Positions 733 to 63,874 of a DNA stretch of 64,000 nt are shown piece by piece. This DNA is from a virus (lineage: Duplodnaviria > Heunggongvirae > Uroviricota > Caudoviricetes). Under the pieces are notes generated by a model that did no database searches, was not told the origin of the DNA, and was given only the letters and a program-made list of their open reading frames with translations. The stretch covers positions 159,394-223,393 of IMG/VR virus record IMGVR_UViG_3300028584_000450; one strand, written 5' to 3'. The translations under genes and the position numbers were made by a program. How positions within the stretch are numbered: position 1 is the stretch's first letter; each line of letters opens with the position of its first letter.

Positions 733-784
733 TAAATTATACGGATATGATACAATTATCATATCCGTATTTTTTATAAATGTC

Positions 785-1154: not shown

Positions 1155-1208
1155 AATATAATAGATACATTATAACCATTTTATTTAAATTTTATTGGAG
1201 CCTATTAT

Positions 1209-8743: not shown

Positions 8744-8780
8744 AAAGTATATGGTAAATTATGATACCGAGATCTAACAC

Positions 8781-10559: not shown

Positions 10560-11076
10560 AGATAAATTTGAAAAATATAAACAACAAATTTCAGAAAATA
10601 TGTATGTATTCCAGGATATACCAATAGAAGATCAAACTCCGGAGTTATGCTTGTTTGCAATTAATATAAATCCATGGGCATTTCAATTTATAACAGACCG
10701 ATCTCCCGAAATATGTAAACGGGCAATAGAAGAAAATCCATGGATGATTGAACTTATAGAAGATCAAACAGAAGAATTATGTAAACTTGCAATTAAACTA
10801 CTTCCAGTTTCATTTAAATTCATAATAAACCAAACTCCTGAATTATGTAAACTTGCAGTTGAAAGAAATGTATATTGTATTCAATATGTAAAAGATCAAA
10901 CGGAAGAATTATGTAAACTTGCAATTGAACAAGATGGGAAATTATTAAAATATGTGAAAAATAAAACATTAGAATTATGCATGATTGCAATTAAACAAGA
11001 TCGGTTAGCAATTAAACGTATTAGTAAAATTAAATTCCCACAAGCACATGAATATTGGAGACTATTATATGGCTAA
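10552..11076 (+). CDS. DUF4116-like tandem-repeat protein, array paralog 17
   Basis: Same family. Confidence 0.8.
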   Translation: MNKDKFEKYKQQISENMYVFQDIPIEDQTPELCLFAININPWAFQFITDRSPEICKRAIEENPWMIELIEDQTEELCKLAIKLLPVSFKFIINQTPELCKLAVERNVYCIQYVKDQTEELCKLAIEQDGKLLKYVKNKTLELCMIAIKQDRLAIKRISKIKFPQAHEYWRLLYG

Positions 11077-11677
11077 TGTAGACTATTATATGGATGATGG
11101 AGCGATAATAGTTGGTAATGTTAATATAGACGAAATGAAAAAAATAAAACACATAAGGAAAATTAATAAAAGTGAAGAAGAATCAAAATTAGCAATTAAA
11201 CAAAATCCATTTGCATTACAATATGTAGAACATCAAACTAAAGAATTATGTTTGCATGCAATTAAAAAATCACCATGGGCATTTGAATATGTAAAGGATC
11301 AAACAGAAGAAATATGTAAATTCGCAGTTGAACTAAGTCCTTTTACACTTAAATTTATAAAAGAGCAAACAGAAGAATTATGTACAATTGCAGTTAATTT
11401 AGTGCCATCAGTAATTAGATATGTAATAAATCAAACCCCGGAATTATGCATGTCTGCAATAAGAAAAGATGCATTATCATTAGAGTATATACAAGTTCAA
11501 ACAAAAGAACTTTGTGAAATTGCAGTTAAAATTAATCCATGGGCAATGAGATATATAAAAAATCCAACCATCCGATTATATAAACTTGCAATTGAACAAG
11601 AACCAAAGACAATCGAATATATTGATGAGACTAAATTTCCAGAAGCTCATGAGTATTGGAGATTACTATACGGCTAA
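11069..11677 (+). CDS. DUF4116-like tandem-repeat protein, array paralog 18 (last)
   Basis: Same family. C-terminal EYWRLLYG. No downstream paralog. Confidence 0.8.
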   Translation: MANVDYYMDDGAIIVGNVNIDEMKKIKHIRKINKSEEESKLAIKQNPFALQYVEHQTKELCLHAIKKSPWAFEYVKDQTEEICKFAVELSPFTLKFIKEQTEELCTIAVNLVPSVIRYVINQTPELCMSAIRKDALSLEYIQVQTKELCEIAVKINPWAMRYIKNPTIRLYKLAIEQEPKTIEYIDETKFPEAHEYWRLLYG

Positions 11678-11731: not shown

Positions 11732-11744
11732 TTAACGGCAAAAT
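11732..11744 (+). promoter_or_regulatory. TTAACGGCAAAAT motif
   Basis: One of 8 same-orientation copies in the window. 40 nt upstream of the 11785 start. Confidence 0.35.
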
Positions 11745-12821: not shown

Positions 12822-13349
12822 ATGGCTAAATTTAGAGAAATAAAACAATATACACAAACACCATATTATCAAATAAATGTTAGTTGGGAAGAAGTTGAAA
12901 GTAAATTAGAATCAATATATAATAATAGGATGGGATATAAAGTTGAGTTAATTCCAGATTTCCAAAGAGGACATATCTGGTCTGAAAAGAAACAAATTGA
13001 ATATGTTGAATTTAAACTTCGTGGAGGTAATGGATCGAATGTATTAATTTGGAATTGCCCAGGATGGATGAACTCGTATATTGGTCCATATCAATTAGTA
13101 GATGGATTGCAACGAATCACAGCCGTGCAAAGATTTATGAAGAATGAAATTAAAGCCTGTGGATATTTGTATTCTGAATATGAAGATAGATTATTAAGTA
13201 ATTGTGAATTCGTATGGACAATTAATAATCTTAAATATAGACGAGATATACTACAATGGTATATTGAATTAAATTCTGGAGGTGTCGTTCATACACAAAA
13301 AGAAATAGATAGAATAAAATCGCTATTAGAAGTCGAACTTAAACTTTAA
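12822..13349 (+). CDS. DUF262 (ParB-like/GmrSD N-terminal) domain protein
   Basis: IPDFQRGHIW and VDGLQRITAV match the DUF262 signature motifs. Confidence 0.6.
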   Translation: MAKFREIKQYTQTPYYQINVSWEEVESKLESIYNNRMGYKVELIPDFQRGHIWSEKKQIEYVEFKLRGGNGSNVLIWNCPGWMNSYIGPYQLVDGLQRITAVQRFMKNEIKACGYLYSEYEDRLLSNCEFVWTINNLKYRRDILQWYIELNSGGVVHTQKEIDRIKSLLEVELKL

Positions 13350-22800: not shown

Positions 22801-23259
22801 ATGAATACGATAACTGGAGATTTAATCGAATTTGCTGAAAATGGACAGTTTGAAGTTATAATCCACGGATGCAATTGTTTCTGTCAGATGGGAGCTGGAA
22901 TAGCAAAACAAATAAAATCAGAATATCCAGAAGCATATCAAGAAGATTGTAAAACTAAAAAAGGAGATAAATCTAAACTTGGCAACTATTCATGGAAACT
23001 GGTTACTGGAAAATACGAATGGAAATTCATAATAATTAATGCATATACACAATACCACTATGGTAGAGGTATACATGCTGATTATAATTCAATTCGATCT
23101 GTATTTAAATCAATAAAACAAAATTTCAATACTTGTAAAATAGCATATCCAAAAATCGGAGCTGGAATGGCGGGTGGTGATTGGAATGTAATAAAATCTA
23201 TAATAGAAGAAGAATTATCTGGATGTGACCATACATTAGTTATATTACCCAATAAATAG
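22801..23259 (+). CDS. macro-domain (ADP-ribose binding/hydrolase-like) protein
   Basis: VIIHGCNCFCQMGAGIAKQI resembles macro VxxNAAN..GGGVxGAI. IAYPKIGAGMAGGDW resembles IAFPxISTGxYG. Confidence 0.5.
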   Translation: MNTITGDLIEFAENGQFEVIIHGCNCFCQMGAGIAKQIKSEYPEAYQEDCKTKKGDKSKLGNYSWKLVTGKYEWKFIIINAYTQYHYGRGIHADYNSIRSVFKSIKQNFNTCKIAYPKIGAGMAGGDWNVIKSIIEEELSGCDHTLVILPNK

Positions 23260-23281
23260 TTATATTGGTTTATACTATTTC

Positions 23282-23291
23282 ATATAGATAT
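23282..23291 (+). promoter_or_regulatory. ATATAGATAT promoter-like motif
   Basis: Exact 10-mer inside a duplicated promoter/leader cassette. Confidence 0.45.
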
Positions 23292-23378
23292 TGATAAGTA
23301 ATAAAAAAGAACTTAATTCACATTCCGTGAGTTAAGTTCATTCACAGCCCGTTTGGGCATAGAAGAAGGAGAATTATT

Positions 23379-23900: not shown

Positions 23901-23961
23901 CCTATCTTCAAGGGAAGATAGGTAGAGGTCTCTAGGATTCCTAGAGAACCGCTATTTTTTT
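23901..23961 (+). terminator. double-hairpin terminator
   Basis: CCTATCTTC-AAGG-GAAGATAGG and GGTCTCTAGG-ATT-CCTAGAGAACC, then TATTTTTTT. Identical copy at 24309. Confidence 0.7.
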
Positions 23962-23992
23962 GATAAATAGTTATATTGGTTTATACTATTTC

Positions 23993-24002
23993 ATATAGAT
24001 AT
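23993..24002 (+). promoter_or_regulatory. ATATAGATAT promoter-like motif
   Basis: Second copy of the duplicated cassette. Confidence 0.45.
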
Positions 24003-24087
24003 TGATAAGCAATAAAAGAACTTAATTCACATTCCGTGAGTTAAGTTCATTCACAACCCATTTGGGCATAGAAGAAGGAGAATTATT

Positions 24088-24308: not shown

Positions 24309-24369
24309 CCTATCTTCAAGGGAAGATAGGTAGAGGTCTCTAGGATTCCTAGAGAACCGCTATTTTTTT
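24309..24369 (+). terminator. double-hairpin terminator (copy 2)
   Basis: Same two hairpins plus T-run. Confidence 0.7.
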
Positions 24370-24389
24370 ATATAATTTTATATAATTTT

Positions 24390-24399
24390 ATATAGATAT
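24390..24399 (+). promoter_or_regulatory. ATATAGATAT promoter-like motif
   Basis: Exact 10-mer at the head of a ~90-nt leader duplicated at 25966. Confidence 0.45.
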
Positions 24400-24482
24400 T
24401 AATTAACATAATATGGAGTTGTTCCAATTATATTTGTTTAATTCAACGCCCAATTGGGCATCGAAATTGGAGGTTTGATATA

Positions 24483-25913: not shown

Positions 25914-25960
25914 GTTACTCCAAGATTATTAGTCTTGGAGTAACTTCACTATTTTTTATA
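25914..25960 (+). terminator. rho-independent terminator
   Basis: Stem GTTACTCCAAGA/TCTTGGAGTAAC, then TTCACTATTTTTTAT. Confidence 0.7.
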
Positions 25961-25965
25961 TTTTT

Positions 25966-25975
25966 ATATAGATAT
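25966..25975 (+). promoter_or_regulatory. ATATAGATAT promoter-like motif
   Basis: Exact 10-mer in a duplicated leader. Confidence 0.45.
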
Positions 25976-26054
25976 TAATTAACATAATATGGAGTTGTTC
26001 CAATTATATTTATTTAATTCATAGCCTATTTTGGCATCGAAAAGGAGATTTAGA

Positions 26055-47885: not shown

Positions 47886-49943
47886 TTACGCTTTAAACGT
47901 TCCAAGAATTGCTTTGAGTTTACCCGAAAGTTCGGATAGCTCAATAGCTTTATTATTTATTTGAGAACTATTATTCGATATATCTTGAGCTGAATGATCC
48001 ACATGAGCAATGTCGCTTGCAATTTCACCAGAAGCAACACTAACTTGACTTAGATTTTCACCAACTTCACTTATACCTAATGATGCATTATTAATATTAC
48101 TTGAAATCTCAACAGTAACTGCAGATTGTTCTTCAACAGAAGTAGCAATGTTAGATACAATAGAATTTATATCATTAATAATAAGTGAAATCTCAGATAT
48201 TTCAGATATAGTTATATTTGTAGTAGTTTGAACTTCTATGATAGTTTTTTGAATCGTAGAAGTTGCCGCTGCTGTCTGTTTTGCAAGTTCTTTTATTTCA
48301 GATGCAACCACAGCAAACCCTTTACCAGCTTCTCCAGCCCTTGCAGCTTCAATTGTAGCATTAAGAGCAAGAAGATTGGTTTGTTCTGAAATAGCATTAA
48401 TTACAGATGTTATTTGTTCAATCTCCTGAGCAGCTTTTCCAAGATTTACTATAGATGTACTAACTTTAGAAGCAACAGTTACCGCATTCTCACTAACACA
48501 TCTGGCTTTTTCTGAATTAATAGCAATCTCATTAATAGTCGATGTCATCTCTTCAGTAGCAGCTGCTACCATATTAATGTTAGATGAAGCTTCTTCCATT
48601 GCTGCTGCAACAGAACTTATATTAGATGTCATCTCTTCAGTAGCAGAGGCAACTGCTCCAGACTTTTCTGATGCATCTTTAGCTCCAGAAGACATAATAT
48701 TTGATATAGAAAGTAAAGATACAGACGAAGTATCCAATGTTATTGCATCAGTTGTGATGGTTTTTATAAGTCCTTGCAATTTTTCCATAAATAAATTAAA
48801 TGCTTTGCAAAGATTACCAATTTCATCACCACTTGAAACATTAAGACGCTTAGTTGTATCCCCTTCACCTTCAGCAATATCATATAATCCAGAAACAACA
48901 CAATTTATTGGATTGACGATAATAACACTCGCAATAAAATAAATAACAACAAATAAAATAACTAAAGCCATAATTGAAATTATAATTGTTATATTTCGAA
49001 GAGAATATACATCTGCCATAATCTCATTTACTGGAATAACAATACCAATAGTCCAAACAGTTCCAGTTCGCCCAGGCTTTATTGGAGAAAATACCAAAAC
49101 ACTTTTTTTGCCACTAATTACTGAAATGCGTTCTTCTGTAATTGGTTCTCCTCGAAGAAGTAAATCATATGCTGGTAAACTTATAAATTCTTGAATACTT
49201 CGTCCGATAATATCTTTCTTTGGATGCGCAATAATAGTTCCGGTATCAGATATTAAACATCCATATCCACTAGTATATGGTTTAATATTAAGGACAAGCT
49301 CTTGCATTTTATCTATAGAGAAATCAACACCAGCAACACCGATTATTGAATTTTGATTCTTTATAGGAACACTAACACTTAAAATGGATATAGTTTGTCC
49401 ACTAATGGTGTAATTAACAGGAGGTAATATCACTTCAGTACCAAGTGCTCTTGGTTTTGTATAATATCCAGTATATGTATTATCTTCAGGTTCAGGACAT
49501 GGTTCTATATGTGTACCTTCAATTCGATTCCAATATGGAAGAAACCGACCCTTAGAATCATGACCCTTATGATCAATAAAGTTAATATCAGGACCAAGTA
49601 TATTTGGTTCTAATACCGTCCATACACCAAGATAATCTGGATTATCAACAAGCATATCTTTTAACATTAAAACTAACATATCTCGATCTAACGGTATCTT
49701 CTGAGTTAATAATCCAGAAAATATTTGGGATAATGTTCTTGCCGAACCCAATGTCGCATCAAGTTCAATTCGAACTTCAGTAGCATATCGACTTGCCATT
49801 TGTGCTGTCTTTTCAAATGCAATCTTCTTAGAGGTTGAATATGTTCTATTTATCGTTATAAAGTTCGAAATAACAAGTGTTATAAATAAAACAGAACATA
49901 TCAAAATCAATAGTTTGCCCTGTAAACCTATTTTTTTACCCAT
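47886..49943 (-). CDS. methyl-accepting chemotaxis protein (dCache-type sensor, HAMP, MCP signalling domain)
   Basis: N-terminal TM, ~270-aa periplasmic Cache-like region, second TM, HAMP. Highly conserved [35 protein letters not shown]. Confidence 0.9.
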
Positions 49944-52900: not shown

Positions 52901-55900
52901 GTAAATATGGTAATTATAATAAAAGATATCATTTATATAAGTAAACTCTGGTATGGTTATTTCATTTATATTTGGATCTAATAACTCAGATGTATATGAT
53001 ATTGAATGATTTAATATAGTGTAAAACTCATTCAATGGAGTTACGGTGGTCTCAAATACTAGGTAAAAAATCTTTGAGTCGCATCTCTCTTTATTTAACG
53101 GCAGAATGTCCTCATGATATTCACTATTGGGAAATATCTTCTGATTATATATCTGAAATGAACATTCTATGAGATTCGACTCATCTAAAATATTTGGAAC
53201 AATTACTGGGCTGTGTGAAATATCTATCATGGGGGTTTCTGCAGGATCTACTGGAGGGACTGTTCTGAAATCAAACCAATCAGAAACAAGTTTTGGCGGG
53301 GTTGTAAAAATACTTGAGTCATACTTAACAGAATAAATATCCATAAAAATGTCATACGTTCCACTATCTGAATAAACTATTGGAATAATTACGGGGCGCA
53401 CCTTATTTGTTAGGCCTAACCCTATGACTAAACTAGGCATTTTATCGATATAACTATAACTATCATCGATTATTACTGTTGGTTTTTTCCATAAAAGTTT
53501 TACACTTCCAATTAAATTATCTAAATTAAATTTAATATGAGAGTCACTCGTCGCAAATGGATTTCCATTCTGATTCTTATGAGTAATCACTAAACAATCT
53601 CTAGAAAATAATAGATCATAATTAGGAATAGGATTACCAATTCTATCAAAACATTTTATATCTAATCGATTATAAATATCATATAAATACTCAAGTTTTA
53701 ACTGTAATACTTCCTCTGGAGTTAAATCTGGACCAAAGTAATCTGAAAGATAATACCGATATTCATCTTTACTACTAATTAAACTACTTAAGTTAATTAC
53801 CCAATACTTACTTGTATAATGATGTAATAATAATCTAGTTACTGAATAATCTATATCCATTGTACTACTAAATATATGACATATACCATTCTGTAATATT
53901 AGTTTATCAGGATTAGTATCACAATGAAAGTACAATATTATTTGATCCTTATTAATTACTAATATATTTTTTGGTATTATTGGATTATTATATTGGTTAA
54001 AACATTCTATTCTTATATTTGTTGTATTTAGGTTATGATTTATCTCCCATAAGTACTTAGGCTTTATTATATAATGAGTGTAGAGATGATTATATTTATT
54101 ATTTAACGGCAAAATATATTTATTTCGCTCGACAATTAGGGCTTGAGTTGAGTATTTCCCTAATCCAATATAAGTTCTCGCTGGTCTATATAATATAAAG
54201 TTGGAAGAATCATTAACAACATCAAGTTCAAATTTAATTAAACGATCTAATGCAACATATCGATTCATCAATGAATATTTATTATTTACTTCTATGTCAT
54301 CTGTGAATATCAATGGCATAGGTAAATGTGGATCAATATAATTGACTTCATAATTAAAATAGTACAATTGATATTTATATGAGAATTCATCTACGGTTAA
54401 ATTAGTATCAGAGAATGGTGTAAGTGGATTATAATCCAATTTTGCTGGAGTATAGTACACTTTCGGAATAAGTACAGTTGGAATCGGTAATCTATGTGAA
54501 TAATTATACTTAGTATAAGGATCGTTAATTCTATTATCAAATGGATTACTAATTATATTATAAGATCTGGACGCCAATAAAGTACCTGTACCATCAACAT
54601 CTATCGGAGTATCGTCTGGATCGAATAATGAAATTGGAACTATATCATGATCTAATAAATCATTTCGGGATACTGAAATTGAACCTGCTGTTTTAATATA
54701 TACAATGTTTGGATCTGAACATGGTATTGTATCATCTATAGAATCTGATTCTACTAAATCGGTTCTATGTTTGAAAAAATAAATTAATGAAAGGTTACAA
54801 GTAACAGATTTAACATAGAATTCAACAGTAGTATTATCTGTAGAAGGACTAAATATTAAATCATTACTATTTAAACCATGATGAATTGACCAATATGAAT
54901 TACTAAATGCAAATGTATTTGTATATAAATCTTTAGTACTATCATTTGTATTTATTAAACTCTGACTCTGAGGAATATCACACTCAATTTCTACATAACC
55001 ACTTGAACTCCATGGAATTAAAAATACATGGTCTTCTTGTCTTAATAATGTAACTCTAATTGAATAATTATCTATAATATCTAATTGATAAAATACTCTA
55101 TTTGGATTAGTATAATCTTGTGTTAAATTATTTGGAAATGTAAATAATGATAGATCTAGTAAATCAATAAAAGATAATATATCATCAGACCATACTTTTA
55201 TCTTAATTGCTTGGGTATTTAAATTATGTACTATATCCCATTTATGTTGATTATTTATTTGTTTGAATTGTAATATTGTTTTATTCTTTATATAGTAAGG
55301 TTTTATACAAGTATTGCAATTATCCGTTATGGATGGATTGATCGTTATATAACCTTTATATTTATTATCAAAGGTTAAAGTTAAATGATTGTTTATGATA
55401 TCTATTTTTAACGGCGAAATTGAGCGTCCGAAGATGTCAAAACAATTAATAACGATCTTATCATAGAACTCCCCTGTCACATCCATCTTATAAATAGCAT
55501 CTGGTGATGGAGAACATGTTTTATCTGGAGTGAAAAATTCATCATAATTAAAACTACAAGTCCAGATATGTGAGTAAAAGCGTTCTATATAAACAAATGA
55601 AGCACAATCAATATTAGATACAACTACTTCTGCATCTTGAGAATAAAATGTCAAATCTTTAAGTACAGCATTATGATTATCTACTAGTTGAACATCATTA
55701 TAATTTAAATAAAAAGGTGAATACCAAGAGTCATATATATTGATCAAAATAAAAGGAGAATCGAGATTGTGATTAACGTTATAATTAATAATATTCTCTT
55801 CATAGACAATATATCTATCATTTGGAGACGAATTTATCACAGAATAACAGCATTGAGTAGACCCACTTCCGGTATGGCCGGTTCTTCCAGGATTACCAAT

Positions 55901-56125
55901 ATTACCAGTACCACCAGTCTCGCCTACAACACCTTGAGAACCAGGATCACCAGTACCGCCAGTTGGACCAACACTTAATCCCAACCAACCTCTCTTTAAA
56001 CCAAAAATAAAACTTTTATCTAGAATATTCATTATTTTACCATATGAAAAATTTGGATTTGATTCTGGTAAACTATCTAAAGGTTTTATCTTTATGTTAC
56101 TAATATTTGGATTATATATTTTCAT
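49967..56125 (-). CDS. giant collagen-like repeat protein (2052 aa), putative fibre/host-recognition protein
   Basis: Gly-X-Y runs near both ends (GPTGGTGDPGSQGVVGETGGTGNIGNPGRTGHTG; GTGGTGGVGVTTGGTGDIGSTIGTTGGTG). N-terminal FGLKRGWLGL domain shared with 57306..58172. Confidence 0.75.
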   Translation of the reverse strand: MKIYNPNISNIKIKPLDSLPESNPNFSYGKIMNILDKSFIFGLKRGWLGLSVGPTGGTGDPGSQGVVGETGGTGNIGNPGRTGHTGSGSTQCCYSVINSSPNDRYIVYEENIINYNVNHNLDSPFILINIYDSWYSPFYLNYNDVQLVDNHNAVLKDLTFYSQDAEVVVSNIDCASFVYIERFYSHIWTCSFNYDEFFTPDKTCSPSPDAIYKMDVTGEFYDKIVINCFDIFGRSISPLKIDIINNHLTLTFDNKYKGYITINPSITDNCNTCIKPYYIKNKTILQFKQINNQHKWDIVHNLNTQAIKIKVWSDDILSFIDLLDLSLFTFPNNLTQDYTNPNRVFYQLDIIDNYSIRVTLLRQEDHVFLIPWSSSGYVEIECDIPQSQSLINTNDSTKDLYTNTFAFSNSYWSIHHGLNSNDLIFSPSTDNTTVEFYVKSVTCNLSLIYFFKHRTDLVESDSIDDTIPCSDPNIVYIKTAGSISVSRNDLLDHDIVPISLFDPDDTPIDVDGTGTLLASRSYNIISNPFDNRINDPYTKYNYSHRLPIPTVLIPKVYYTPAKLDYNPLTPFSDTNLTVDEFSYKYQLYYFNYEVNYIDPHLPMPLIFTDDIEVNNKYSLMNRYVALDRLIKFELDVVNDSSNFILYRPARTYIGLGKYSTQALIVERNKYILPLNNKYNHLYTHYIIKPKYLWEINHNLNTTNIRIECFNQYNNPIIPKNILVINKDQIILYFHCDTNPDKLILQNGICHIFSSTMDIDYSVTRLLLHHYTSKYWVINLSSLISSKDEYRYYLSDYFGPDLTPEEVLQLKLEYLYDIYNRLDIKCFDRIGNPIPNYDLLFSRDCLVITHKNQNGNPFATSDSHIKFNLDNLIGSVKLLWKKPTVIIDDSYSYIDKMPSLVIGLGLTNKVRPVIIPIVYSDSGTYDIFMDIYSVKYDSSIFTTPPKLVSDWFDFRTVPPVDPAETPMIDISHSPVIVPNILDESNLIECSFQIYNQKIFPNSEYHEDILPLNKERCDSKIFYLVFETTVTPLNEFYTILNHSISYTSELLDPNINEITIPEFTYINDIFYYNYHIYLSHYYSYNYDSEHYNKQYYDSHVKIDNQYFLITPEEEIVIEKLNYIPPDNIIFNPYIKLKNIISYAGQDFSLPINIYDAHSVNIETITLKITSPYLFPNVETISYGNDYNLVSFRPDRNTLVIKANSIYSHSANLLFCKINFYVLKYHGESDNIITVECNIKVRNQPSIDLVPVISKVHIVLIEEISGSLEPIPIPFPHVVPNEEFIEYPLLDVMGSHGYTDIFSEDVWLDEENDIISGMYSIIDNSFNIDGPNLESESVAILDTYPILSKDSIKFGTSVVNAITKPTDKLAFGAYIHSRKNGTKTWYIEHYFDSYDLYISPIISLSGKKYVPNKITYIDTTRLELHFDEPVSGKVYIYDHMPTFEPSNPFQDPVYTEYGNCNCRNMYILKVTNKTSRFTITHNLDSIDLDTMVVPDDSVDIDQFNNHTLLLGYITPQKIKVELITYNPNASNISIPFRFSGTIYIIDKSGYKTNYIPTNYIDTYTYSVPLGMGVRGESPPYAINEAGDVIDISSNLSLIEKYEPNVFYDSCTWDIHHNLNTTSIVIRTYGYSTATLDDYLLSPAFDTTYPPPLTLNPRTIKFIDNNSIQIIFDKPERGFCKISTVSTEQDKTNIFCSLYNENKNCACKNSKSRDTCTTYADYNILGEDSATNTSAIYYESAEWITLRHNMNFNPKLIFYNEQNLRVHPLKIYYVNLQYLEVQFDVNHKFTGIMRVCCLEYRRTLYCEEYLSGTGGTGGVGVTTGGTGDIGSTIGTTGGTGYWPIITGGTGCTGTLGGTGLVLPPNPNFIKCPDIYNQNYNPIQIGFAEFSLVVTTWHPDMTLRNPSDISTSYARTMSFINIHNSIPTVSRLIPWNNDSESFPFIPNSNDRRYLPYEYILEHLHTDNDYWHSTSFLRNYSNFKFTSQSYEFFWCFPTISKFTPTVIGRTISVRGSIIDSGLCLSFTENTGAPVNLRTVMRYEYEEIRVKVIYGYRRK

Positions 56126-56206
56126 TTATTCTGAAGTCCTTATATAATTTGTATGTTATATACAGGAATACTATCATTTATAGTATTTATATAATCATTG
56201 ATAATG

Positions 56207-56218
56207 AACGGCAAAAAT
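56207..56218 (+). promoter_or_regulatory. AACGGCAAAAAT motif
   Basis: Member of the clustered AACGGCAAAAT family. Confidence 0.35.
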
Positions 56219-56251
56219 TATGGTTTTATCAATAACTATACAAAGATTATA

Positions 56252-56262
56252 AACGGCAAAAT
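56252..56262 (+). promoter_or_regulatory. AACGGCAAAAT motif
   Basis: Exact 11-mer. Confidence 0.35.
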
Positions 56263-56294
56263 CTAAATTGTCTGGAAAAATAATCAAATCCGTC

Positions 56295-56304
56295 ATATAG
56301 ATAT
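56295..56304 (+). promoter_or_regulatory. ATATAGATAT promoter-like motif
   Basis: Exact 10-mer, 43 nt upstream of 56347. Confidence 0.4.
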
Positions 56305-56346
56305 TATACAATAGTATATAATAACTTTAATTTGGAGGGTTAAAAA

Positions 56347-56616
56347 ATGGACAAAATTGAAATACCATGGGCTGAAATAACTATCGGTGCCGCAGGTCAA
56401 ATGATCGGCGGTAGTTGCACAATGGTGATTGGGGCATTGCTCGAAAGAACTCCATTCACTGCAATTGGAATTCTGATGGTTGTTGTGATTGGTTGTCTTT
56501 TACTGAATAGGTTAAACTACTATTCAAAAAAGGTAAAGGATAATAAAGCACATATGTTCCTTGGAGTATTTATCGGTGTGATTATAATCACCGCGGCAAT
56601 CAATAGACAACATTAA
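56347..56616 (+). CDS. small membrane protein
   Basis: Two or three TM helices. GGAGGG SD. Confidence 0.5.
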   Translation: MDKIEIPWAEITIGAAGQMIGGSCTMVIGALLERTPFTAIGILMVVVIGCLLLNRLNYYSKKVKDNKAHMFLGVFIGVIIITAAINRQH

Positions 56617-56623
56617 AAAGGAG

Positions 56624-57010
56624 ATGGAGATGGACCTATTCATTGATAATGATAGAAGAAATATTGAAAGGATTAATTGCATATCGAGTTTAATAATTGG
56701 TATATTGGTCTCTTACTTTATCATCGGAATGGTGATTTGGTATGGAGGACAATTCATTCCAATATTAAATATGGATGATTTTAAAGTTGGAGCTGGAAAA
56801 ATAGTACTAACTAATGGGTTACTAATAATTACAGAAATTAATGAATCACTCATTATACTTCTACTAGCAGCTCATACCGGATTGGTATTGTTCATTAATC
56901 CTAAGGCAGAAACACCATGGCGGATTAAACAGAATGTGTTAATTAAAAAGAACCTAACATATGGGATGGTTCTGGGAAGTATAATATTAATAATTAACAT
57001 ATTGGTGTGA
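56624..57010 (+). CDS. membrane protein
   Basis: Three or four TM helices. AAAGGAGATGG SD. Confidence 0.5.
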   Translation: MEMDLFIDNDRRNIERINCISSLIIGILVSYFIIGMVIWYGGQFIPILNMDDFKVGAGKIVLTNGLLIITEINESLIILLLAAHTGLVLFINPKAETPWRIKQNVLIKKNLTYGMVLGSIILIINILV

Positions 57011-57173
57011 TATAAATGGACTAGATAAGGAAATTATATCTTTATCTAGTCCAAATATATCATAAACTTTTTTTATTGTTAATATTAAATAGATAAATAA
57101 ATAAACAATAAATATATTAACTGTCAAGGCTATTATTTTCTCAACCACAAGCATATTTTTATAATTGGTATTT

Positions 57174-57184
57174 AACGGCAAAAT
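57174..57184 (+). promoter_or_regulatory. AACGGCAAAAT motif
   Basis: Exact 11-mer. Confidence 0.35.
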
Positions 57185-57230
57185 TTGTGGGATTATAATG
57201 GTAAATAGTTATGGTATTATTAAATAATGA

Positions 57231-57240
57231 ATATAGATAT
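57231..57240 (+). promoter_or_regulatory. ATATAGATAT promoter-like motif
   Basis: Exact 10-mer. Confidence 0.35.
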
Positions 57241-57305
57241 ATGGTATTATAATATTTAAAGATACAGTTCCTACAATAGTGGATTAATACCTGTGTGTTT
57301 AAATA

Positions 57306-58172
57306 TTATTGTACCAGAAAATAGAATATCTGAAGATGTATTTTTTTACCAGTTGGAATGGATTTTGGTATATTAATATATGCTTCAGTAACATTAGAAA
57401 ATAATTGAATGTACATATTTTTATCAATAATAGCAGAGATAGATTGTCCAGTATCATTATATGCAAGGTTTATAAATGCCCCATTTGTTTTTTTTGGATA
57501 AAATAGGGATGGTTGAAGAGCCAATATATTACCTGGAGAAGGTAAATATATACCATTGATCTGTTCAGATATTAAAATATTTGTAACGGCAAAATCAAAA
57601 GAATTATAATGTGATTTTATTTCAACTTGTAGTTGGGATGTATCTACACCAGTCAAAATAAGATCTATAATAGCTATAGAATTTTCTCCAGTTCCATCAC
57701 CATGATAGGTTCCAACTCCATATGCAGAGCCAGTTCCACCAGTATGCCCAGTACCTCCAGTACCAGCCGTCGATCCAGTACCTCCAGTACCTCCGGAAAT
57801 ACTTCCAGTCCCTGGACTCCCAGTACCTCCAGTAGGCCCAAATCCACCAGTACCTCCAGTAGGTCCAGTACCTCCAGTAGGTCCAGTACCTCCAGTGGTT
57901 CCACGACAACCAGTTGCTCCAGTTGCTCCAGTTTGACCATGAAGTCCAATAGGACCAGTTCCACCACATCTTCCGGTTCCACCAAGAACACTTACACCAT
58001 CTGGCATTAAATCATCTCTAAGTTTCAACCATCCAGTTTGTAATCCAAAATAGAAATTATCATGATCATGGACATAAATAATTCTACCAATAAAAGGAAC
58101 TCCCCAATCGGGAAGTGTAGGAAAAGCTTCAACTGGAAGATAATCAATAATATCTCCACCATATATTTCCAT
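57306..58172 (-). CDS. collagen-like repeat protein (288 aa)
   Basis: ~100-aa G-X-Y tract ([34 protein letters not shown]...). N-terminal domain homologous to the giant protein ([10 protein letters not shown]). Confidence 0.75.
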
Positions 58173-58253: not shown

Positions 58254-59039
58254 ATGACCAAACCAACATTGTCCGAAATTGAAGTTAAAGAAATATTAAC
58301 TAGGTTGCCAGAAATGGCATATATTTCAGAAATGAAATATGGCCGAAATACAAAATCATTCTGGGTTAGATTACCAGGATGTAGAATGGATAAAAAGCTA
58401 CAAAAATCATTTACATATAGTAAATGTGGGAGTAAAGAGAATTCACTACTCCAAGCTAAATTATGGAGAGATAAACAATATATAAAAGGAATTAAAGCTG
58501 GTTTGTTTCTAGAATATTTTTACAGTTACCCGACTAGAAATTTAATAAGAAAACCAAAAAATGGAAGACTTGGGATATTCATATATAATAATATCCATAA
58601 AGTTATACGAAATGGAAAATTATATGACATTCGAGAATATGCATATGTTGCATCTTGGATTGAATATGATCACCAAAAAAATGAATATACCCGTAAAAGT
58701 GTGCGGAAGTTCTTTTCAATAAACAAATATGGAAAGGAAGAAGCAAAAAGGCTGGCCATCGAAGCACGAACTAATATAGAAAAATATTTAAACTCTAGAA
58801 AACATAAGGATTTACGAAAAAAGTGGATGGACCTGAGAAATAAAAGCATATTGTCTAAATTAGGTCCAATGACATATATAATTGAGACAATATCTGGATT
58901 TAGAGTACATATTCCAGGTAAGAGACCAAAAAGTTTTCACATCAATAAACATATTGATGGAAGAGATGAAGCATTGTTCTGGGCTCAAGATTGGAGAGAT
59001 GATATAATCATCGACTCTAAAACCAAAATTAAAGATTAA
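58254..59039 (+). CDS. putative DNA-binding protein with repeated AP2-like modules
   Basis: Repeated KSFWVRLPG...LWRDK, YGKEEAKRLAIEAR and GFRVHIPGKRPKSFHINKHIDGRDEALFWAQDWRDD segments resemble AP2/integrase-type DNA-binding domains. Confidence 0.35.
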   Translation: MTKPTLSEIEVKEILTRLPEMAYISEMKYGRNTKSFWVRLPGCRMDKKLQKSFTYSKCGSKENSLLQAKLWRDKQYIKGIKAGLFLEYFYSYPTRNLIRKPKNGRLGIFIYNNIHKVIRNGKLYDIREYAYVASWIEYDHQKNEYTRKSVRKFFSINKYGKEEAKRLAIEARTNIEKYLNSRKHKDLRKKWMDLRNKSILSKLGPMTYIIETISGFRVHIPGKRPKSFHINKHIDGRDEALFWAQDWRDDIIIDSKTKIKD

Positions 59040-59044: not shown

Positions 59045-59094
59045 ATGGACCAATTAATTAATTATAATTAATTGGTCCATTGACTTTTTTTATT
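59045..59094. terminator. bidirectional rho-independent terminator
   Basis: 36-nt palindrome ATGGACCAATTAATTA-ATTA-TAATTAATTGGTCCAT, then TGACTTTTTTTATT. Confidence 0.75.
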
Positions 59095-59983
59095 ATCGAT
59101 ATTCAAGATCGGGTTTATCTTTCTTTATCACGGGAGCTAATTTTTGTGCAAGTTTAAGTTGAACTTGAACTTGATTTTCACCGAGGTTTGGAACTGCTTG
59201 ACCAGGATTATAACTAGTTCCGCAATTCATTTTAACTATCGGTGCTTGCAACGCTATTAAAACATTTGCTCCAATACCATATACTAATGCAGCACTGCAA
59301 AGTGCAGATAATTTGGCAATCTCAAACCGCATTTTACCAGAATAATCATACACATTTTTATCAACCCGCTGATGAGCAGAGCCACCAACTTCAATCTTTT
59401 GATCTTTATCAACATGACAATTGTATTCTTTCTTAATAGAAATACCAAGGTTATCATCACTATATAAATGATATCCATCTTCATTAATTATTGTCGTTGT
59501 ACGAAGTTCATTATAATATAGATGAATTGAATTTGGAATTAATGCTCCAGTTAATCCTGGACCTGAAGTTTCTTCAAGTACAATAAACATATTATGTTTC
59601 TTAGGAGTTTTAAATAACAAATACATATCATCTCGATCATTAGTACTTACTGGGGCACCTACACCAATTTTAAGAATACAATCTAAAATCTGATCTGACA
59701 TTATTCGGTCAATATATCCAGTATTTAGATCATCTTCATAAAATTTAATCATTACACAGGTTCCAGGCTGAACTGGTTTATATTCCCCATAAAGACTATC
59801 ATCACTTCCAGTATATCTCCACTTATGGATATGATTTTTAACCCAAATACCTTCAGTTTTAGTCATTAATGGTTGAAGTTCAGGAATATGTACTTTATAT
59901 CTGCCCTGATTTTTAGGATCAATAGGAGGCAATGTTATTGCATGATATTCATTTTCACGTAAACTTCGGCCATGATTACTCAT
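59093..59983 (-). CDS. putative structural protein
   Basis: 296-aa ORF in a co-directional block with collagen-like genes. No motif recognised. Confidence 0.5.
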   Translation of the reverse strand: MSNHGRSLRENEYHAITLPPIDPKNQGRYKVHIPELQPLMTKTEGIWVKNHIHKWRYTGSDDSLYGEYKPVQPGTCVMIKFYEDDLNTGYIDRIMSDQILDCILKIGVGAPVSTNDRDDMYLLFKTPKKHNMFIVLEETSGPGLTGALIPNSIHLYYNELRTTTIINEDGYHLYSDDNLGISIKKEYNCHVDKDQKIEVGGSAHQRVDKNVYDYSGKMRFEIAKLSALCSAALVYGIGANVLIALQAPIVKMNCGTSYNPGQAVPNLGENQVQVQLKLAQKLAPVIKKDKPDLEYR

Positions 59984-59984
59984 T

Positions 59985-60518
59985 TTAATTTACTCTGGTT
60001 ATTCTAGCAGATGATTTATATGTTGTGTCTTTTTTTACTCCACCAAGTAAAAGGCTTGGATGTTTATAATCCGATTTACGAACACTAATATTTAAAATGG
60101 TTTTATCAGAAAATCCTTTACAACCTTTAAAATTAGTTAATTGAAATCCATGTTCGAAAATACGGTAGAACCAATCAAATAATCGTCCTTTTTTAGGCCT
60201 TCCAAAGAAATGTGTAATAACTTCACAAGTTCCAGACTTCTCAACAGTAAATTCCACTTGATCTGCATTTTTAGCAGCAATAATATACCCATTAGTACTA
60301 ATATCTGGAGTATTAAATACTGCATCTTCTGCAGTGTAGAATAAAAATGATGGGTTAAGATTTGCAACCATTCTGAGATTATTCAACACAATCCCTTTAT
60401 TTGGTACATCTCCAAATGATAATGAAACTAGATCAAATGGAATTGTTCCACTTCTCCAAGGAACTTTATCGTAATTAATTGATTCCAAAACTAAACTATT
60501 GATGTTTTGAATTTCCAT
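59985..60518 (-). CDS. putative structural protein
   Basis: 177-aa ORF, 1-nt intergenic gap. Confidence 0.5.
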   Translation of the reverse strand: MEIQNINSLVLESINYDKVPWRSGTIPFDLVSLSFGDVPNKGIVLNNLRMVANLNPSFLFYTAEDAVFNTPDISTNGYIIAAKNADQVEFTVEKSGTCEVITHFFGRPKKGRLFDWFYRIFEHGFQLTNFKGCKGFSDKTILNISVRKSDYKHPSLLLGGVKKDTTYKSSARITRVN

Positions 60519-60523
60519 TAATA

Positions 60524-60967
60524 TTACTGTCCTGTAGGTTCTTTATAGTTATGCATATCTGCAACATTTCGGCTCATAGGAGCAGGAGTAATTACCATCG
60601 TTCTAGGAACTTTAATTATTTTTGCTTCATAATCCATTATATTTCCAGTTCCAGCAGGTTTAATATTAAAATTATGTCCGGGATCAACAGGATAACCTTG
60701 AGGTGTAGCAATAGTCGTAATTCCATGCTGTTCAATAACACGCCCTTTAATAATGTTTGCAAACTGTAAAAGATCTTTAAATATATAAGTTTCAGTATGT
60801 GTTATCTTATTTCGAATTTCCCAAAATAACTCTTCCAATTTTCCATTGTAATCTACTAGAAATTCATCATAATCTCCAGCAAAAAATTCATTACCCTGAC
60901 CAACAAGAGATCCACCAGTTGTTTTAACTCGGCTCAGAATATCTGAAACTGCAATAAAATCACTCAT
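60524..60967 (-). CDS. putative structural protein
   Basis: 147-aa ORF. Confidence 0.5.
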   Translation of the reverse strand: MSDFIAVSDILSRVKTTGGSLVGQGNEFFAGDYDEFLVDYNGKLEELFWEIRNKITHTETYIFKDLLQFANIIKGRVIEQHGITTIATPQGYPVDPGHNFNIKPAGTGNIMDYEAKIIKVPRTMVITPAPMSRNVADMHNYKEPTGQ

Positions 60968-61810: not shown

Positions 61811-61856
61811 AGCCTGGACTAAACATCCAGGCTCATTAGCTTTTATTTTTTTATTT
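61811..61856. terminator. bidirectional rho-independent terminator
   Basis: Stem AGCCTGGA/TCCAGGCT, then CATTAGCTTTTATTTTTTTATTT. Confidence 0.7.
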
Positions 61857-62543
61857 AACAATAACAGGTTCTGGTTGAACTACTATCGTAGGCGGAGAGG
61901 TACTATCGGTAGTAGTAGTATTATCATAATTGGTTCTACCATCAGTAGTAGTAGTAGTATTATCATAATTGGTTCTACCATCAGTAGTAGTATTATCATA
62001 ATTAGTACGACTATCAGTACTTGTAGTTGCAGTGCTTGTAGTTGCAGTGCTTGTAGTTGCAGTATCTGCATTATCTGAATTTGAATGTTCTGTAACAGAA
62101 CCATCTCCCTCAACATGCTTTGTTGTTACATTTATACTATTTTCAGAATCCTTCTTAACTGTAATAGGAGAATTATCTCCACTATTATATGAAGTTGTTC
62201 CAATTCTATCTAAAACATGACCGATAGCCCAACCACCACCAAATATCTTAATTGCTGCTGAATTAAGAATAGTATCAGTAGTTTGAACAAAAGCATTTGG
62301 TTCAGCAACAACTGGCATTGGAGCTACTTGACTATGATTATAAACGGTGAACACTTCTCCTGATTTCGCAGTCATTGTAGCGATTTTATTATTTGTATTT
62401 GCAATAGCCCAGGCTTTAGAGGCTTCTCCTTTTGCTTGCCACATTGCAGCATCAGCATTATACTTTGCATCAGAAACAAATAAAGAACAACCATGACAAA
62501 AAATAAGCAGAATAAAAATAATACAATATATAATTTTATTCAT
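61851..62543 (-). CDS. lipoprotein with Thr-rich tandem repeats
   Basis: Signal peptide plus Cys (FCHGCS). TATTSTATTSTATTST and 3 x DGRTNYDNTTTT, encoded by tandem DNA repeats at ~61900-62080. Confidence 0.6.
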   Translation of the reverse strand: MNKIIYCIIFILLIFCHGCSLFVSDAKYNADAAMWQAKGEASKAWAIANTNNKIATMTAKSGEVFTVYNHSQVAPMPVVAEPNAFVQTTDTILNSAAIKIFGGGWAIGHVLDRIGTTSYNSGDNSPITVKKDSENSINVTTKHVEGDGSVTEHSNSDNADTATTSTATTSTATTSTDSRTNYDNTTTDGRTNYDNTTTTTDGRTNYDNTTTTDSTSPPTIVVQPEPVIVK

Positions 62544-62554
62544 AAATAAACTCC

Positions 62555-63523
62555 TTATAATCCAAATACAGAAGTGACATCATAAGACATATTATCAATC
62601 AATTTATAAATTTCAACTTCTATTTTATTCTGTAAATCACTAGATACTGCAGCAACATTAAGAGTTGGAAATGGATATTTTGAAACTATAGACAAAGCAA
62701 TCAAATAATCTAAAGTAGAAGTCATTGCATAAAATCCAGTAGGCTTCAATATTGAAATTGCTTTCATCATAAGAAGAGGAGGAGATTCATTAATTATCTT
62801 AAAATCAATCCAAGCTTTAAAGATATCTCGCATATATGTATATTTTTGAAGATGAACAATTAATGGATCAACTTCTTTCTGTAATGATGTGCTAATTCGA
62901 CGATAAGTATATTCTTTAGCTAAATCATGATTAACTTTGATTAGAAATCGATAAAAGAAATAAGAACATAAAACATCTAGAAATTCTTTTTGACGAGGAG
63001 ATAATGTGACTGACTTTGATAATAATTTAAGACACAAAAAGTTAACATATTTAATTATATCCCCATGTAGTTTTATATTATTTTTTATCTCTTTAGTATG
63101 AACCCTTACTGTTGCTCTTATAAATTCGAAATATGTAGCGTAAAATGCAGATTCTATTCTACTTGTTTCCCCTGTTTCTGGATCTATATCTAATTCTACG
63201 ACATCTAACAATACTCCAGCAAACTTAATTCTATTAATAATAAATGATCCTAAAATTCCATTTTTACTAGGACTGCTAAAATCTCTACCTAAAAATATAA
63301 GGTTTCTATCTATTAATTTTTGAACGGCAGATTTTGCATGTGTTTTCGGAATTTTTACAATAAATGAATTTAATGTGTTTCTGAAAGTGTCATATAAAAG
63401 TTTATTATCGCTATTTCCAGGTGTCATAATTAATAATTTACGTTCACCAACAAAAATTGGTAAATTCATATCTTCAGGATCAACAGAGGTAGGATCAAAT
63501 ATTGATGTGTTTTGATATTTCAT
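62555..63523 (-). CDS. hypothetical protein
   Basis: 322-aa ORF. Confidence 0.55.
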   Translation of the reverse strand: MKYQNTSIFDPTSVDPEDMNLPIFVGERKLLIMTPGNSDNKLLYDTFRNTLNSFIVKIPKTHAKSAVQKLIDRNLIFLGRDFSSPSKNGILGSFIINRIKFAGVLLDVVELDIDPETGETSRIESAFYATYFEFIRATVRVHTKEIKNNIKLHGDIIKYVNFLCLKLLSKSVTLSPRQKEFLDVLCSYFFYRFLIKVNHDLAKEYTYRRISTSLQKEVDPLIVHLQKYTYMRDIFKAWIDFKIINESPPLLMMKAISILKPTGFYAMTSTLDYLIALSIVSKYPFPTLNVAAVSSDLQNKIEVEIYKLIDNMSYDVTSVFGL

Positions 63524-63529
63524 AAAAAG

Positions 63530-63874
63530 TCATTCCTTCTCAAAAGCTAAAATAGAAATAATTGAAGAGTTTGATGGAGCACAAATGCTTCCATTTAAAT
63601 ATTCAGTATTAAATTGATAAATCGTTCCAAGATCATTACACATCAATACAATTGGATAATAGTATTGATTTTTATATGTATCATCACAAAATTGATGTGG
63701 GTTGAAATTCCAATTTTGATTATCAAAGGCTACCGTTTTGGCACCCAGGACTAATGATAGTTTATTTTTAAAAAAAATATTCGAATGAGGTGTTTTTTTA
63801 AACTCATTAAATATAATTTTGGAAACCGACGATAATCCTGAATAATGATTGACTAAATTCGATGTAGTTCTCAT
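63530..63874 (-). CDS. hypothetical protein
   Basis: 114-aa ORF. Confidence 0.5.
   Translation of the reverse strand: MRTTSNLVNHYSGLSSVSKIIFNEFKKTPHSNIFFKNKLSLVLGAKTVAFDNQNWNFNPHQFCDDTYKNQYYYPIVLMCNDLGTIYQFNTEYLNGSICAPSNSSIISILAFEKE

Follow-up and report, generated by a model that had tools for sequence, protein, structure and literature searches.

In the window (the whole 64,000-nt stretch of phage DNA that was analysed), two collagen-like fibre genes lie on the minus strand on either side of an oppositely oriented cassette, and an AP2-like gene follows (Table 1). No homologue of the giant fibre gene was found among 5.8 billion proteins. The main promoter of the phage is the word TATAGATAT, which is distinct from the motif described here, is likewise polar, over-represented and lineage-wide, and is absent at both fibre genes. 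The 221-nt region 5' of the giant gene holds two motif copies. The window and its flanks (84 kb examined) yielded no genes for an initiator, a terminase or ParA/ParB partition, the window gave no MotA/AsiA or gp55 homologue, and no NusG paralogue was identified.

Table 1. Motif copies, genes and local signals in the window.
Feature	Position	Strand	Remarks
Motif copy, exact	11734..11744	+	Top matrix score, 25.5 bits; intergenic, 57 nt past the last gene of a + strand paralogue array, 51 nt 5' of the ATG at 11785
DUF262/GmrSD_N protein	12822-13349		ParB-like fold
Giant fibre-like gene, 2052 aa	49967..56125	-	Collagen-like Gly-X-Y runs close to both ends; repeated W-x-I-x-H-N-L-N domains
Motif copy, AACGGCAGAAT	53097..53107	+	Within giant gene; sense ATT CTG CCG TTA AAT = I-L-P-L-N
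Motif copy, exact	54105..54115	+	Within giant gene; sense ATT TTG CCG TTA AAT = I-L-P-L-N
Motif copy, AACGGCGAAAT	55410..55420	+	Within giant gene; sense ATT TCG CCG TTA AAA = I-S-P-L-K
Imperfect inverted repeat	56180..56244	.	Arms of ~20 bp (…ATAGTTATTGATAA / TTATCAATGATTAT…) enclosing the 56207 copy; folding z-score -4.7
Motif copy, AACGGCAAAAA	56207..56217	+	Divergent intergenic, in inverted-repeat loop; 82 nt 5' of the giant gene's minus-strand ATG
Motif copy, exact	56252..56262	+	45 nt from the 56207 copy; 127 nt 5' of the giant gene's minus-strand ATG; 44 nt 5' of the TATAGATAT promoter at 56296
TATAGATAT promoter of cassette	56296	+	
Two-gene cassette, 89-aa and 128-aa membrane proteins	56347..57010	+	Opposite orientation to fibre genes
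Terminator hairpin of cassette	57008-57062		Followed by a T run
Motif copy, exact	57174..57184	+	Convergent intergenic, flanked by two terminator-like hairpins; 58 nt 5' of an orphan TATAGATAT at 57232
Hairpin, 26-nt arms	57242..57316	.	Overlaps the 288-aa gene stop codon; terminator-like for the minus strand
Collagen-like tail-fibre gene, 288 aa	57306..58172	-	phrog_5073 'tail fiber protein' match, E = 7e-12
Motif copy, exact	57585..57595	+	Within 288-aa gene; sense GAT TTT GCC GTT ACA = D-F-A-V-T
Triple AP2-like beta-beta-beta-alpha protein	58254..59039	+	Candidate binder only; gene missing from related phages
Weak variant, AACGGCAGATT, 17 bits	63323..63333	+	Within 322-aa gene; sense TCT GCC GTT CAA AAA = S-A-V-Q-K

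The repeat is real and far beyond chance. The exact motif, AACGGCAAAAT, occurs five times in the window, always on the + strand, where 0.05 copies were expected, and none of 100 shuffles reached five or more. Three further + strand copies differ by one mismatch, and seven of these eight strong copies fall within 4.5 kb over the two fibre genes. On the coding (minus) strand of these genes the word reads 5'-TTTTGCCGTTnAAAA-3', also given as 5'-(T)TTTGCCGTTnAAAA-3', of which AACGGCAAAAT is the reverse complement; the flank consensus is TATTT-AACGGCAAAAT. With a weight matrix the eight sites scored 21-25.5 bits and all other sequence at most 17 bits, the weak + strand variants lying at 63323 and, beyond the window, at -5078 and 73002. 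The sole one-mismatch match on the minus strand, at 6260 (AACTGCAAAAT), has a broken core. Moreover, in the window and flanks (80.7 kb) the AACGGC core was found 13 times on the + strand and once on the other. These counts bear out the preliminary description, which had reported eight clustered copies of one orientation, seven of them in 4.5 kb, and a chance expectation well below 1; its remark that they are usually preceded by TTT applies to four of the eight.

Apart from one close pair (56207/56252, 45 bp), the copies in the cluster are separated by 411-1305 bp. The intragenic copies (53097, 54105, 55410, 57585, 63323, 73002 and -5078), strong and weak alike, all have the sense orientation of the minus-strand genes that contain them. 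Across 47 kb of + strand genes no copy of either orientation occurs except the intergenic one at 11734, which is the sole strong copy beyond the cluster; the others outside the fibre locus are weak variants. In the window, the remaining minus-strand operons (59093-60967 and 61851-63874) lack a strong copy, as does the upstream region of the 288-aa gene.

The three copies in the 2052-aa gene share one codon frame, ATT-(TTG/TCG/CTG)-CCG-TTA-AA(T/A) or I-[L/S]-P-L-[N/K], and stand 1305 and 1008 nt apart, distances divisible by 3; the other frame is used by the 288-aa gene copy alone. The earlier statement that the copies lie in different frames was thus right for the latter and wrong for the three in the giant gene. 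Since the third frame would make a TAA stop, this sharing carries little weight. In the phage and its relatives together, two frames (x-A-V and x-P-L/F) and intergenic positions are occupied, and because the copies span non-coding DNA and two reading frames, the word is conserved at the DNA level, as had been proposed. The codons forced by the motif had also been called otherwise rare; in the 288-aa gene the only GCC codon is the motif copy, and in the giant gene CCG accounts for 12 of 124 Pro codons, three of them in motifs. A shared RNA fold and promoter partner elements are absent: no common RNA structure was found around the copies, and from -40 to +45 nothing further is conserved, including any -35/-10 or initiation-region partner.

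Syntenic contigs (L206, L207, L209, L210 and L211) of uncultivated jumbo phages with 40-50% protein identity were scanned with a matrix built from the eight sites of the window alone. The strand of the structural genes gave 15 matches and its complement 2, where ~1.7 were expected with both strands summed (~10x), and the GCCGTT core was 5-10x over-represented; L211 carries 12 GCCGTT in 12 kb, and its motif matches at >=12 bits have a strand ratio of 6:2. The phages carrying the word have a genome GC of 26-32%, and the word itself has a GC-rich core and ~20 bits of information. The 322-aa gene of four phages has an orthologous copy, weak in the window and full in L206, L207 and L210, which uses GCC, a rare codon that supplies 11% of Ala codons. 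Furthermore, L211 was compared with L212/L213, to which it is 88% identical overall: motif-like copies differ at 2 of 96 nt, against a background divergence of 12%, and GCCGTT without the flanks at 7 of 48 nt; the reversed L211 copies at 6616 and 8589 are likewise conserved. Copies in oppositely oriented genes of the relatives mostly hold their DNA-strand orientation (L207 17455; degenerate L211 3135 and 4190), that at L211 3542 being the sole one flipped with its gene, and several precede a start codon by 17-117 nt (L211 5519 and 10506; L207 1508 and 6882; L206 6110). These data demonstrate the existence, significance, polarity, lineage conservation, purifying selection and frame independence of the word. 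The word is dispersed and strand-polar, is kept by selection at the nucleotide level throughout the lineage and is densest in this cluster, which does not represent iterons of an origin, a pac site or a centromere.

The preliminary description had favoured a replication origin, packaging or partition site. The direct same-orientation repeats, with the 45-bp tandem pair at 56207/56252, and the DUF262/GmrSD_N protein of ParB-like fold would suit origin iterons, terminase (pac) sites or a partition centromere, and phage T4 has an origin inside its tail-fibre gene 34. However, spacings of 411-1305 bp are unlike iterons, the 84 kb examined contain no initiator, terminase or ParA, and cumulative GC skew only tracks gene orientation, with no inflection at 56-57.6 kb. 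Iteron origins, pac sites and parS arrays likewise consist of direct repeats of a protein-sized word, but the present copies are not arrayed in tandem, not confined to a single locus and not beside initiator, terminase or partition genes. Because at least five related contigs carry the word at dispersed positions, on both strands and within conserved genes, an origin or pac site at one locus is largely refuted, and this reading is highly improbable. The cluster may still be a regulator binding array, as was also suggested at the time. Another reading makes the copies operators of the triple-AP2 protein, which would bind the GCCG core (putative target TTTTGCCGTTAAAT) and repress the fibre locus by a CasPR-like roadblock. 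The AP2 gene and the nearest copy are 660 nt apart, the protein matches Pfam AP2 (E = 2.9e-7), and its AlphaFold model (pLDDT 82) predicts three beta-beta-beta-alpha units. Short G/C-rich motifs are frequent targets of AP2 domains, and CasPR AP2 proteins bind short G/C-containing sites within coding DNA and stall elongating RNA polymerase (preprint 10.64898/2026.02.23.707548). CasPR acts on host cas genes through one 30-bp site and has a CapR zinc domain (preprint 10.64898/2026.02.23.707548), whereas here many sites lie in the phage's own genes, the CapR/Zn domain is absent and relatives without the AP2 gene keep the motif. In addition, the Pfam score of 31.1 bits falls short of the curated cut-off (33.3 bits), and the match that Foldseek gave to PfSIP2 lacks significance. 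A word-seeded search returned no homologue, exhaustive HMMER gave only matches of <=39% identity in unrelated phages and mobile elements, at whose loci the motif was not seen, and genes at the equivalent position in related phages encode non-AP2 proteins. Since the relatives lack the gene, the protein is a weak candidate binder, and we consider its operators quite improbable.

It is improbable, too, that the word has no local function and that the cluster marks mosaic ancestry, the fibre segment having been acquired recently from a relative with about one copy per kb genome-wide. Fibre genes are typically swapped between phages, L211 has such a density (12 GCCGTT in 12 kb), outside the fibre locus the window phage has only weak variants, and the giant gene lacks a detectable homologue; however, the question of function is merely shifted to the donor, the 7:0 bias in orientation exceeds the 6:2 of L211 at >=12 bits, copies stand in non-coding DNA on either side of the inserted cassette, and the cluster borders show no compositional break. 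A second, middle or late class of compact promoter, which fires along the minus strand and is recognised by a phage RNA polymerase or sigma-like factor conserved in the lineage, would account for a word that is polar, over-represented and lineage-wide like TATAGATAT, for the copies 82 and 127 nt upstream of a giant gene that has no TATAGATAT, and for the relatives' copies close to start codons. We doubt it, as placement before gene starts is only weakly enriched (~7 of 23 late-strand copies within ~130 nt upstream, against roughly 17% at random), the three copies deep in the 6.2-kb gene are not followed by an in-frame ribosome-binding site and start codon, the conserved 322-aa gene copy is ~780 nt from the next start, and the motif is missing at other minus-strand operon starts; the earlier view that this is not an ordinary promoter is upheld by these placements and by the missing partner element. 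The T4 MotA box (TTTGCTTTA), to which TTTGCCGTTnA bears a superficial likeness, and the T4 late promoter (TATAAATA) are also short phage-specific words, polar with gene direction and often inside upstream genes, but the motif has no -10 at the required distance and most copies are not upstream of genes. The main rival to a reading in terms of transcription, unlikely but deserving more weight, is a Chi-like or 'architecture-imparting' polar word read by a host or phage enzyme tracking from a DNA end (RecBCD/AddAB or a recombination machine), at which degradation would be attenuated and recombination stimulated. The 5-10x over-representation of a ~20-bit word with a GC-rich core in genomes of 26-32% GC, the polarity (8:0 in the window, 15:2 in relatives), the near-random placement relative to gene starts and frames, the DNA-strand orientation held by the 11734 copy and by copies in opposite genes, and the conservation of reversed copies all point this way. 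Chi and the KOPS/SRS skewed oligomers are, like the motif, short, GC-rich, over-represented, strand-polar and intragenic regardless of frame or gene starts; their sequences are unrelated, however, and the motif is near-absent from the 47-kb early-type region, with one copy in 47 kb of + strand genes, so that it is not genome-wide. Known Chi sequences are 5-8 nt and lack the T-run and A-run flanks that are conserved here. If the word is Chi-like, the seven-site fibre patch would be a recombination hotspot for swapping host-range modules.

Our tentative preference is for a polar signal that acts on late-strand transcription, either through a protein roadblock or by ops-like pausing; we infer both that the transcription machinery reads the word and the sign of the effect. 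Transcription complexes travelling along the late (minus) strand would meet the word in cis. A conserved protein occupying this short recognition site might form a polar roadblock, for which CasPR gives a precedent of proteins halting RNA polymerase at sites within coding DNA (preprint 10.64898/2026.02.23.707548). Alternatively, an elongation factor might read the non-template strand, making the word an ops-like pause or reloading site. In either case, seven serial sites would set the transcription that passes the two fibre genes and the opposite, terminator-flanked two-gene insert. Sites of the ops/RfaH type resemble the motif as orientation-dependent, 12-nt-class non-template-strand signals of long, AT-rich, horizontally acquired operons that involve no RNA structure, but ops (GGCGGTAGnnTG) is unrelated in sequence and usually stands once or twice in a 5' leader, whereas the motif is mostly intragenic. 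To our knowledge, ~1 copy per kb exceeds the density of any known ops-type system.

The sense orientation of every intragenic copy and the lack of TATAGATAT at the fibre genes speak for transcription, whereas the 11734 copy, oriented opposite to the local + strand genes, and the operons at 59093-60967 and 61851-63874 and the 288-aa upstream region, all without a strong copy, speak against it. The conserved reversed copies L211 6616 and 8589 are unexpected under a purely sense-strand or RNA-level signal. The DNA-strand orientation kept in the relatives' opposite genes fits a DNA-strand process, or read-through transcription, as well as it fits the reading that we prefer.

The clustered, same-orientation word reported in the preliminary description was found to be real and statistically strong. 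The 11-mer AACGGCAAAAT occurs exactly five times in the window, at 11734, 54105, 56252, 57174 and 57585 and only on the + strand, against an expected count of 0.05 from dinucleotide-preserving shuffles of the window. Three further copies with one mismatch are present on the same strand (53097, 55410 and 56207), so that the orientation within the window is 8:0, and seven of the eight copies fall within 53097-57595. The single one-mismatch match on the minus strand has a broken GC core. Moreover, the flanks lengthen the motif to approximately 16 nt (TATTT-AACGGCAAAAT), and weight-matrix scores of 21-25.5 bits for the eight copies were obtained, compared with 17 bits or less for all other positions.

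The copies inside the collagen-like genes had been described as lying in different reading frames. This holds between the two fibre genes and not within the larger one: the three copies of the 2052-aa giant gene share a single codon frame, I-[L/S]-P-L-[N/K], and the 288-aa gene carries its copy in a second frame, while the third frame of the motif yields a TAA stop. Chance or a coding artefact was ruled out by the shuffles, the intergenic copies and the use of two frames. A relic of domain duplication in the giant protein was also rejected, as the motif peptides do not occupy equivalent places within the W-x-I-x-H-N-L-N repeats and the copies differ in their flanking DNA. Deletion variants between in-frame copies were dismissed because the database held no shorter homologue of the giant protein, and a recombination breakpoint at the motif was dismissed because strain SNPs are scattered. 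Furthermore, IMG/VR scans with TTTAACGGCAAAAT, a two-copy pattern and TTTGCCGTTCAAAAAT returned only unrelated single matches or coding N-G-K repeats, which excluded a widespread viral element, and literature matches to the word were primers only. By sequence the word fits no known family; its behaviour resembles that of the known polar words Chi and ops.

Features of the fibre locus, leftward along the minus strand, with example positions of the promoter-like word (window coordinates)
Feature	Position	Strand	Remarks
288-aa collagen-like fibre gene	58172 to 57306	-	holds copy 57585
Hairpin ending the 288-aa gene	57242-57316		
Intergenic stretch between 288-aa gene and cassette			holds copy 57174
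Membrane-protein cassette, two genes	56347-57010	+	own promoter word and own terminator hairpin (57008-57062)
Region upstream of giant gene, 221 nt			holds copies 56252 and 56207
Inverted repeat, 20-bp arms (ATAGTTATTGATAA... / ...TTATCAATGATTAT)	56180-56244		loop holds copy 56207; z = -4.7
Giant fibre-like gene, 2052 aa	56125 to 49967	-	holds copies 55410, 54105 and 53097
Methyl-accepting chemotaxis-type protein, full length	47886-49943	-	dCache, HAMP, MCPsignal; phrog_8572; directly after giant gene, same strand
TATAGATAT-type word, examples	12243, 12774, 17756, 18665, 23283, 23994, 24391, 25967, 26825, 28546, 33125, 47500, 56296, 58202, 61424, 63905		

The window belongs to a phage-like metagenomic genome larger than 120 kb. 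JGI samples 3300028549 and 3300033562, as well as SRR21758068, contain near-identical (99.9%) contigs, and for this phage a contig of 256,898 bp is on record. The sequence examined extended from -6.8 kb to 76.9 kb in window coordinates, with 6.8 kb of left flank and 12.9 kb of right flank. Most window ORFs belong to no known family, and the matches include Band_7, Macro, RyR, a methyl-accepting chemotaxis-like protein and tail-fibre PHROGs. No relatives were found among cultured phages (INPHARED), in IMG/VR or in a GTDB genome scan, and searches with the fibre (including the giant), AP2 and spike proteins detected none. Two proteins did have relatives, namely a 685-aa protein encoded immediately beyond the right edge of the window and a 322-aa protein (62555-63523), at 33-52% identity, on large contigs and in the same gene order. 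These contigs comprised L206 (334.5 kb, NCBI, JBINOJ010001092.1), L207 (258 kb, ENA, ERZ27262924 k141_300951) and the JGI contigs L209-L213.

In these relatives (26-32% GC), the GCCGTT core, as the word reads on the structural-gene strand, is over-represented 5-10 times, and its flanks match those in the window, with T at -1 and -2 and an A run from +7 to +11. A matrix built from the eight window sites only matched the structural-gene strand 15 times and the opposite strand twice, compared with approximately 1.7 matches expected for both strands together, placing the word about 10 times above expectation. Moreover, the 322-aa gene carries a copy at one shared position in L206, L207, L210 and the window (in the window as the weak variant 63323). 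It is encoded GCC-GTT (A-V), and GCC accounts for 11% of the Ala codons in the window's genes. The L211 clade lacks this copy, and a reversed copy using the codon CGG sits 15 nt away. Between L211 and L212/L213, which are 88% identical overall, motif-like copies differ at 2 of 96 positions, compared with 7 of 48 for GCCGTT occurrences lacking the flanks. The conserved position, polarity, excess and low divergence show that the word is a lineage-wide, strand-polar element under selection at the nucleotide level. A 14-nt string, TTGAACGGCAGATT, was also observed in the 322-aa gene of both L211 (6611) and the window (63323), at matching protein positions to within about 20 nt; it is sense in L211 (codons E-R-Q) and antisense in the window.

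The lineage also carries a separate promoter-like word, TA(T/G)AGATAT(T), whose exact form TATAGATAT occurs 24 times on the + strand and 3 times on the minus strand of 80.7 kb. It lies almost always 46-100 nt ahead of start codons, its orientation tracks the genes, it has no -35 element, and it was found in the related contigs too. This word is probably the main (early-type) promoter of the lineage. The early promoters of jumbo phages with their own RNA polymerases have been described as an AT-rich word of about 10 nt centred near -10 (PMC7598289), a description that TA(T/G)AGATAT fits. Among the structural genes, it is missing from the fibre genes and present at the cassette, the AP2 gene and other + strand genes. 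An orphan TATAGATAT at 57232-57240 is followed by no + strand ORF, is directed, antisense, at the 3' end of the 288-aa gene, directly next to its hairpin, and may drive an antisense RNA. Some other, dimeric regulator might use the inverted repeat in the divergent promoter region as its operator. In addition, two near-identical pairs of promoter cassettes were noted (23250-23330 and 23960-24040; 24360-24440 and 25940-26020), each consisting of TATAGATAT with about 40 nt of conserved flank per side, which resemble the mobile promoter/stem-loop cassettes of T4-type phages.

The preliminary description had favoured a replication origin, a packaging site or a partition array, and this preference was not supported. 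Iteron origins contain at least three tandem direct repeats (about 17-22 bp) in helical phase within a few hundred bp, at a single locus adjoining an initiator gene and a skew inflection; here, one pair of copies is 45 bp apart, the remaining copies are separated by 411-1305 bp, a search of 85 ORFs revealed no Rep or initiator family, and the GC skew, proposed as a check, mirrors gene orientation only. Packaging sites (pac/cos) lie in or adjoining terminase genes at virion DNA ends, and no terminase gene was found from -6.8 kb to 76.9 kb. A parS or plasmid-type centromere adjoins a ParA-ParB (or equivalent) operon; no ParA was found, and the sole related match was a GmrSD_N/DUF262 protein 40 kb off. 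Because the word is moreover dispersed in the relatives, a unique origin, packaging site or centromere does not fit, and such a function of the cluster is considered very improbable. A compact promoter, which would be expected close to gene starts, at a regular upstream spacing and accompanied by conserved partner or initiation elements, is improbable. About 7 of 23 late-strand copies lie within approximately 130 nt upstream of a start, no conserved partner elements occur between -40 and +45 of the motif, and the internal copies are followed by no ribosome-binding site with an in-frame start, so that the classical promoter reading is weakly supported. Slightly less probable still is an operator for the triple-AP2-like protein (58254-59039, +). 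This protein is encoded by the same element, matches Pfam AP2 at E = 2.9e-7 (below the curated cut-off) and is modelled as three beta-beta-beta-alpha units, and phage AP2 proteins can block RNA polymerase from within coding DNA (preprint 10.64898/2026.02.23.707548). Against this, the relatives have the motif and no AP2 homologue, and the loci of AP2 homologues lack the motif.

A word read one way along the late-gene strand could be served by two kinds of machine, namely transcription complexes or end-tracking DNA enzymes. The reading ranked first, though tentatively, is a polar transcription signal of a roadblock or ops-like kind. It is favoured because the word is nearly absent from the 47-kb + strand gene block, all intragenic copies in this phage are in sense orientation, two copies lie upstream of the giant gene, and copies flank both sides of the terminator-flanked foreign cassette. 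The likeness to ops/RfaH concerns possible working and not membership: the ops consensus GGCGGTAGnnTG stands in a 5' leader, whereas the window word differs in sequence and only 2 of its 8 copies are in a leader. A Chi-like word is ranked second and is judged unlikely. Placement within genes is near random, the DNA-strand orientation is kept by the copy at 11734 and by copies inside oppositely oriented genes, reversed copies are conserved, and both the excess and the strand skew (15:2 in the relatives) are as in Chi; however, the word does not spread over the whole replicon, the 47-kb + strand gene block having a single copy. Mosaic ancestry with no local function is given the same low standing as the compact promoter. 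A wider proposal, rather doubtful as a whole, is that this uncultivated jumbo-phage lineage (about 250-330 kb) possesses a strand-polar signal word of its own, Chi-like or ops-like, concentrated in giant tail-fibre genes. Such a word might make host-range genes a recombination hotspot, or might sustain or throttle late transcription along fibre genes of 6 kb and past inserted foreign cassettes, and either would be a cis-acting system so far undescribed in such phages.

Knowledge of middle and late control signals in jumbo phages is sparse, and a review of their RNA polymerases places middle and late promoters beyond bioinformatic prediction (PMC7598289). The present case is a compact, selectively maintained, strand-polar word from a lineage known only from metagenomes, concentrated in host-range-determining genes. 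Should transcription be under its control, it would provide a way into the late-gene regulation of such phages; should it be Chi-like, it would account for the exchange of fibre modules and name the host's hotspot sequence. Together with TATAGATAT, the word provides a sequence signature by which members of the lineage may be recognised.

Several other candidates were rejected or judged unlikely. Nested genes from internal starts were discounted, given the sequence downstream of the internal copies. A host-type promoter is judged unlikely because a sigma-70 scan was at chance level (47 vs 47.6 expected) and nothing is conserved from -40 to +45, and no consistent sigma-28, sigma-54, ECF, SPO1-late or Bacteroidetes spacing was seen by eye at the motif. 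An RNA structural element does not fit: a search of 49-60 kb for known RNA families at E <= 1 gave one spurious snoRNA match only, and no common fold was found among the eight copies. DNA uptake sequences (DUS/USS), which occur at about one copy per kb in roughly equal orientations in naturally competent hosts, were rejected on the strong polarity, the density being similar in L211. The AP2 family itself consists of two-AP2-domain proteins of about 190 aa from phages and mobile elements (58 representative clusters at E <= 0.001), set among early-type or accessory genes of unrelated phages and also, on a bacterial contig, within a mobile element that carries ParB_N/DUF932; pattern searches with this family met alignments too diverse for scanning or found nothing.

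Two families of paralogues were also observed. About 17 overlapping + strand genes (phrog_5925 / phrog_17056, faint DUF4116) form an array at window positions 1-11677, with gene overlaps of 8 or 29 nt and common DNA words such as TGTAAACTTGC (29 copies). The right flank (66978-70685 in window coordinates; 3190-6897 of the flanking contig L194) encodes small minus-strand proteins that all end in ...AAKKYLSRRKK and have a DNA repeat, GTCTAGAAAGATATTTCTTAGC, in common (5 copies). Two independent JGI contigs of this phage break off at a strand switch, one stopping at 19948 and the other beginning at 20407, and this may be a strain-variable or hard-to-assemble spot. Finally, the ribosome-binding context AAATAGGAGATAA(T), unusually long and invariant, was found at 31354, 33704, 36123, 37669, 40367, 42176 and 44024, which argues for a host with strong Shine-Dalgarno use and thus not one of the Bacteroidota.
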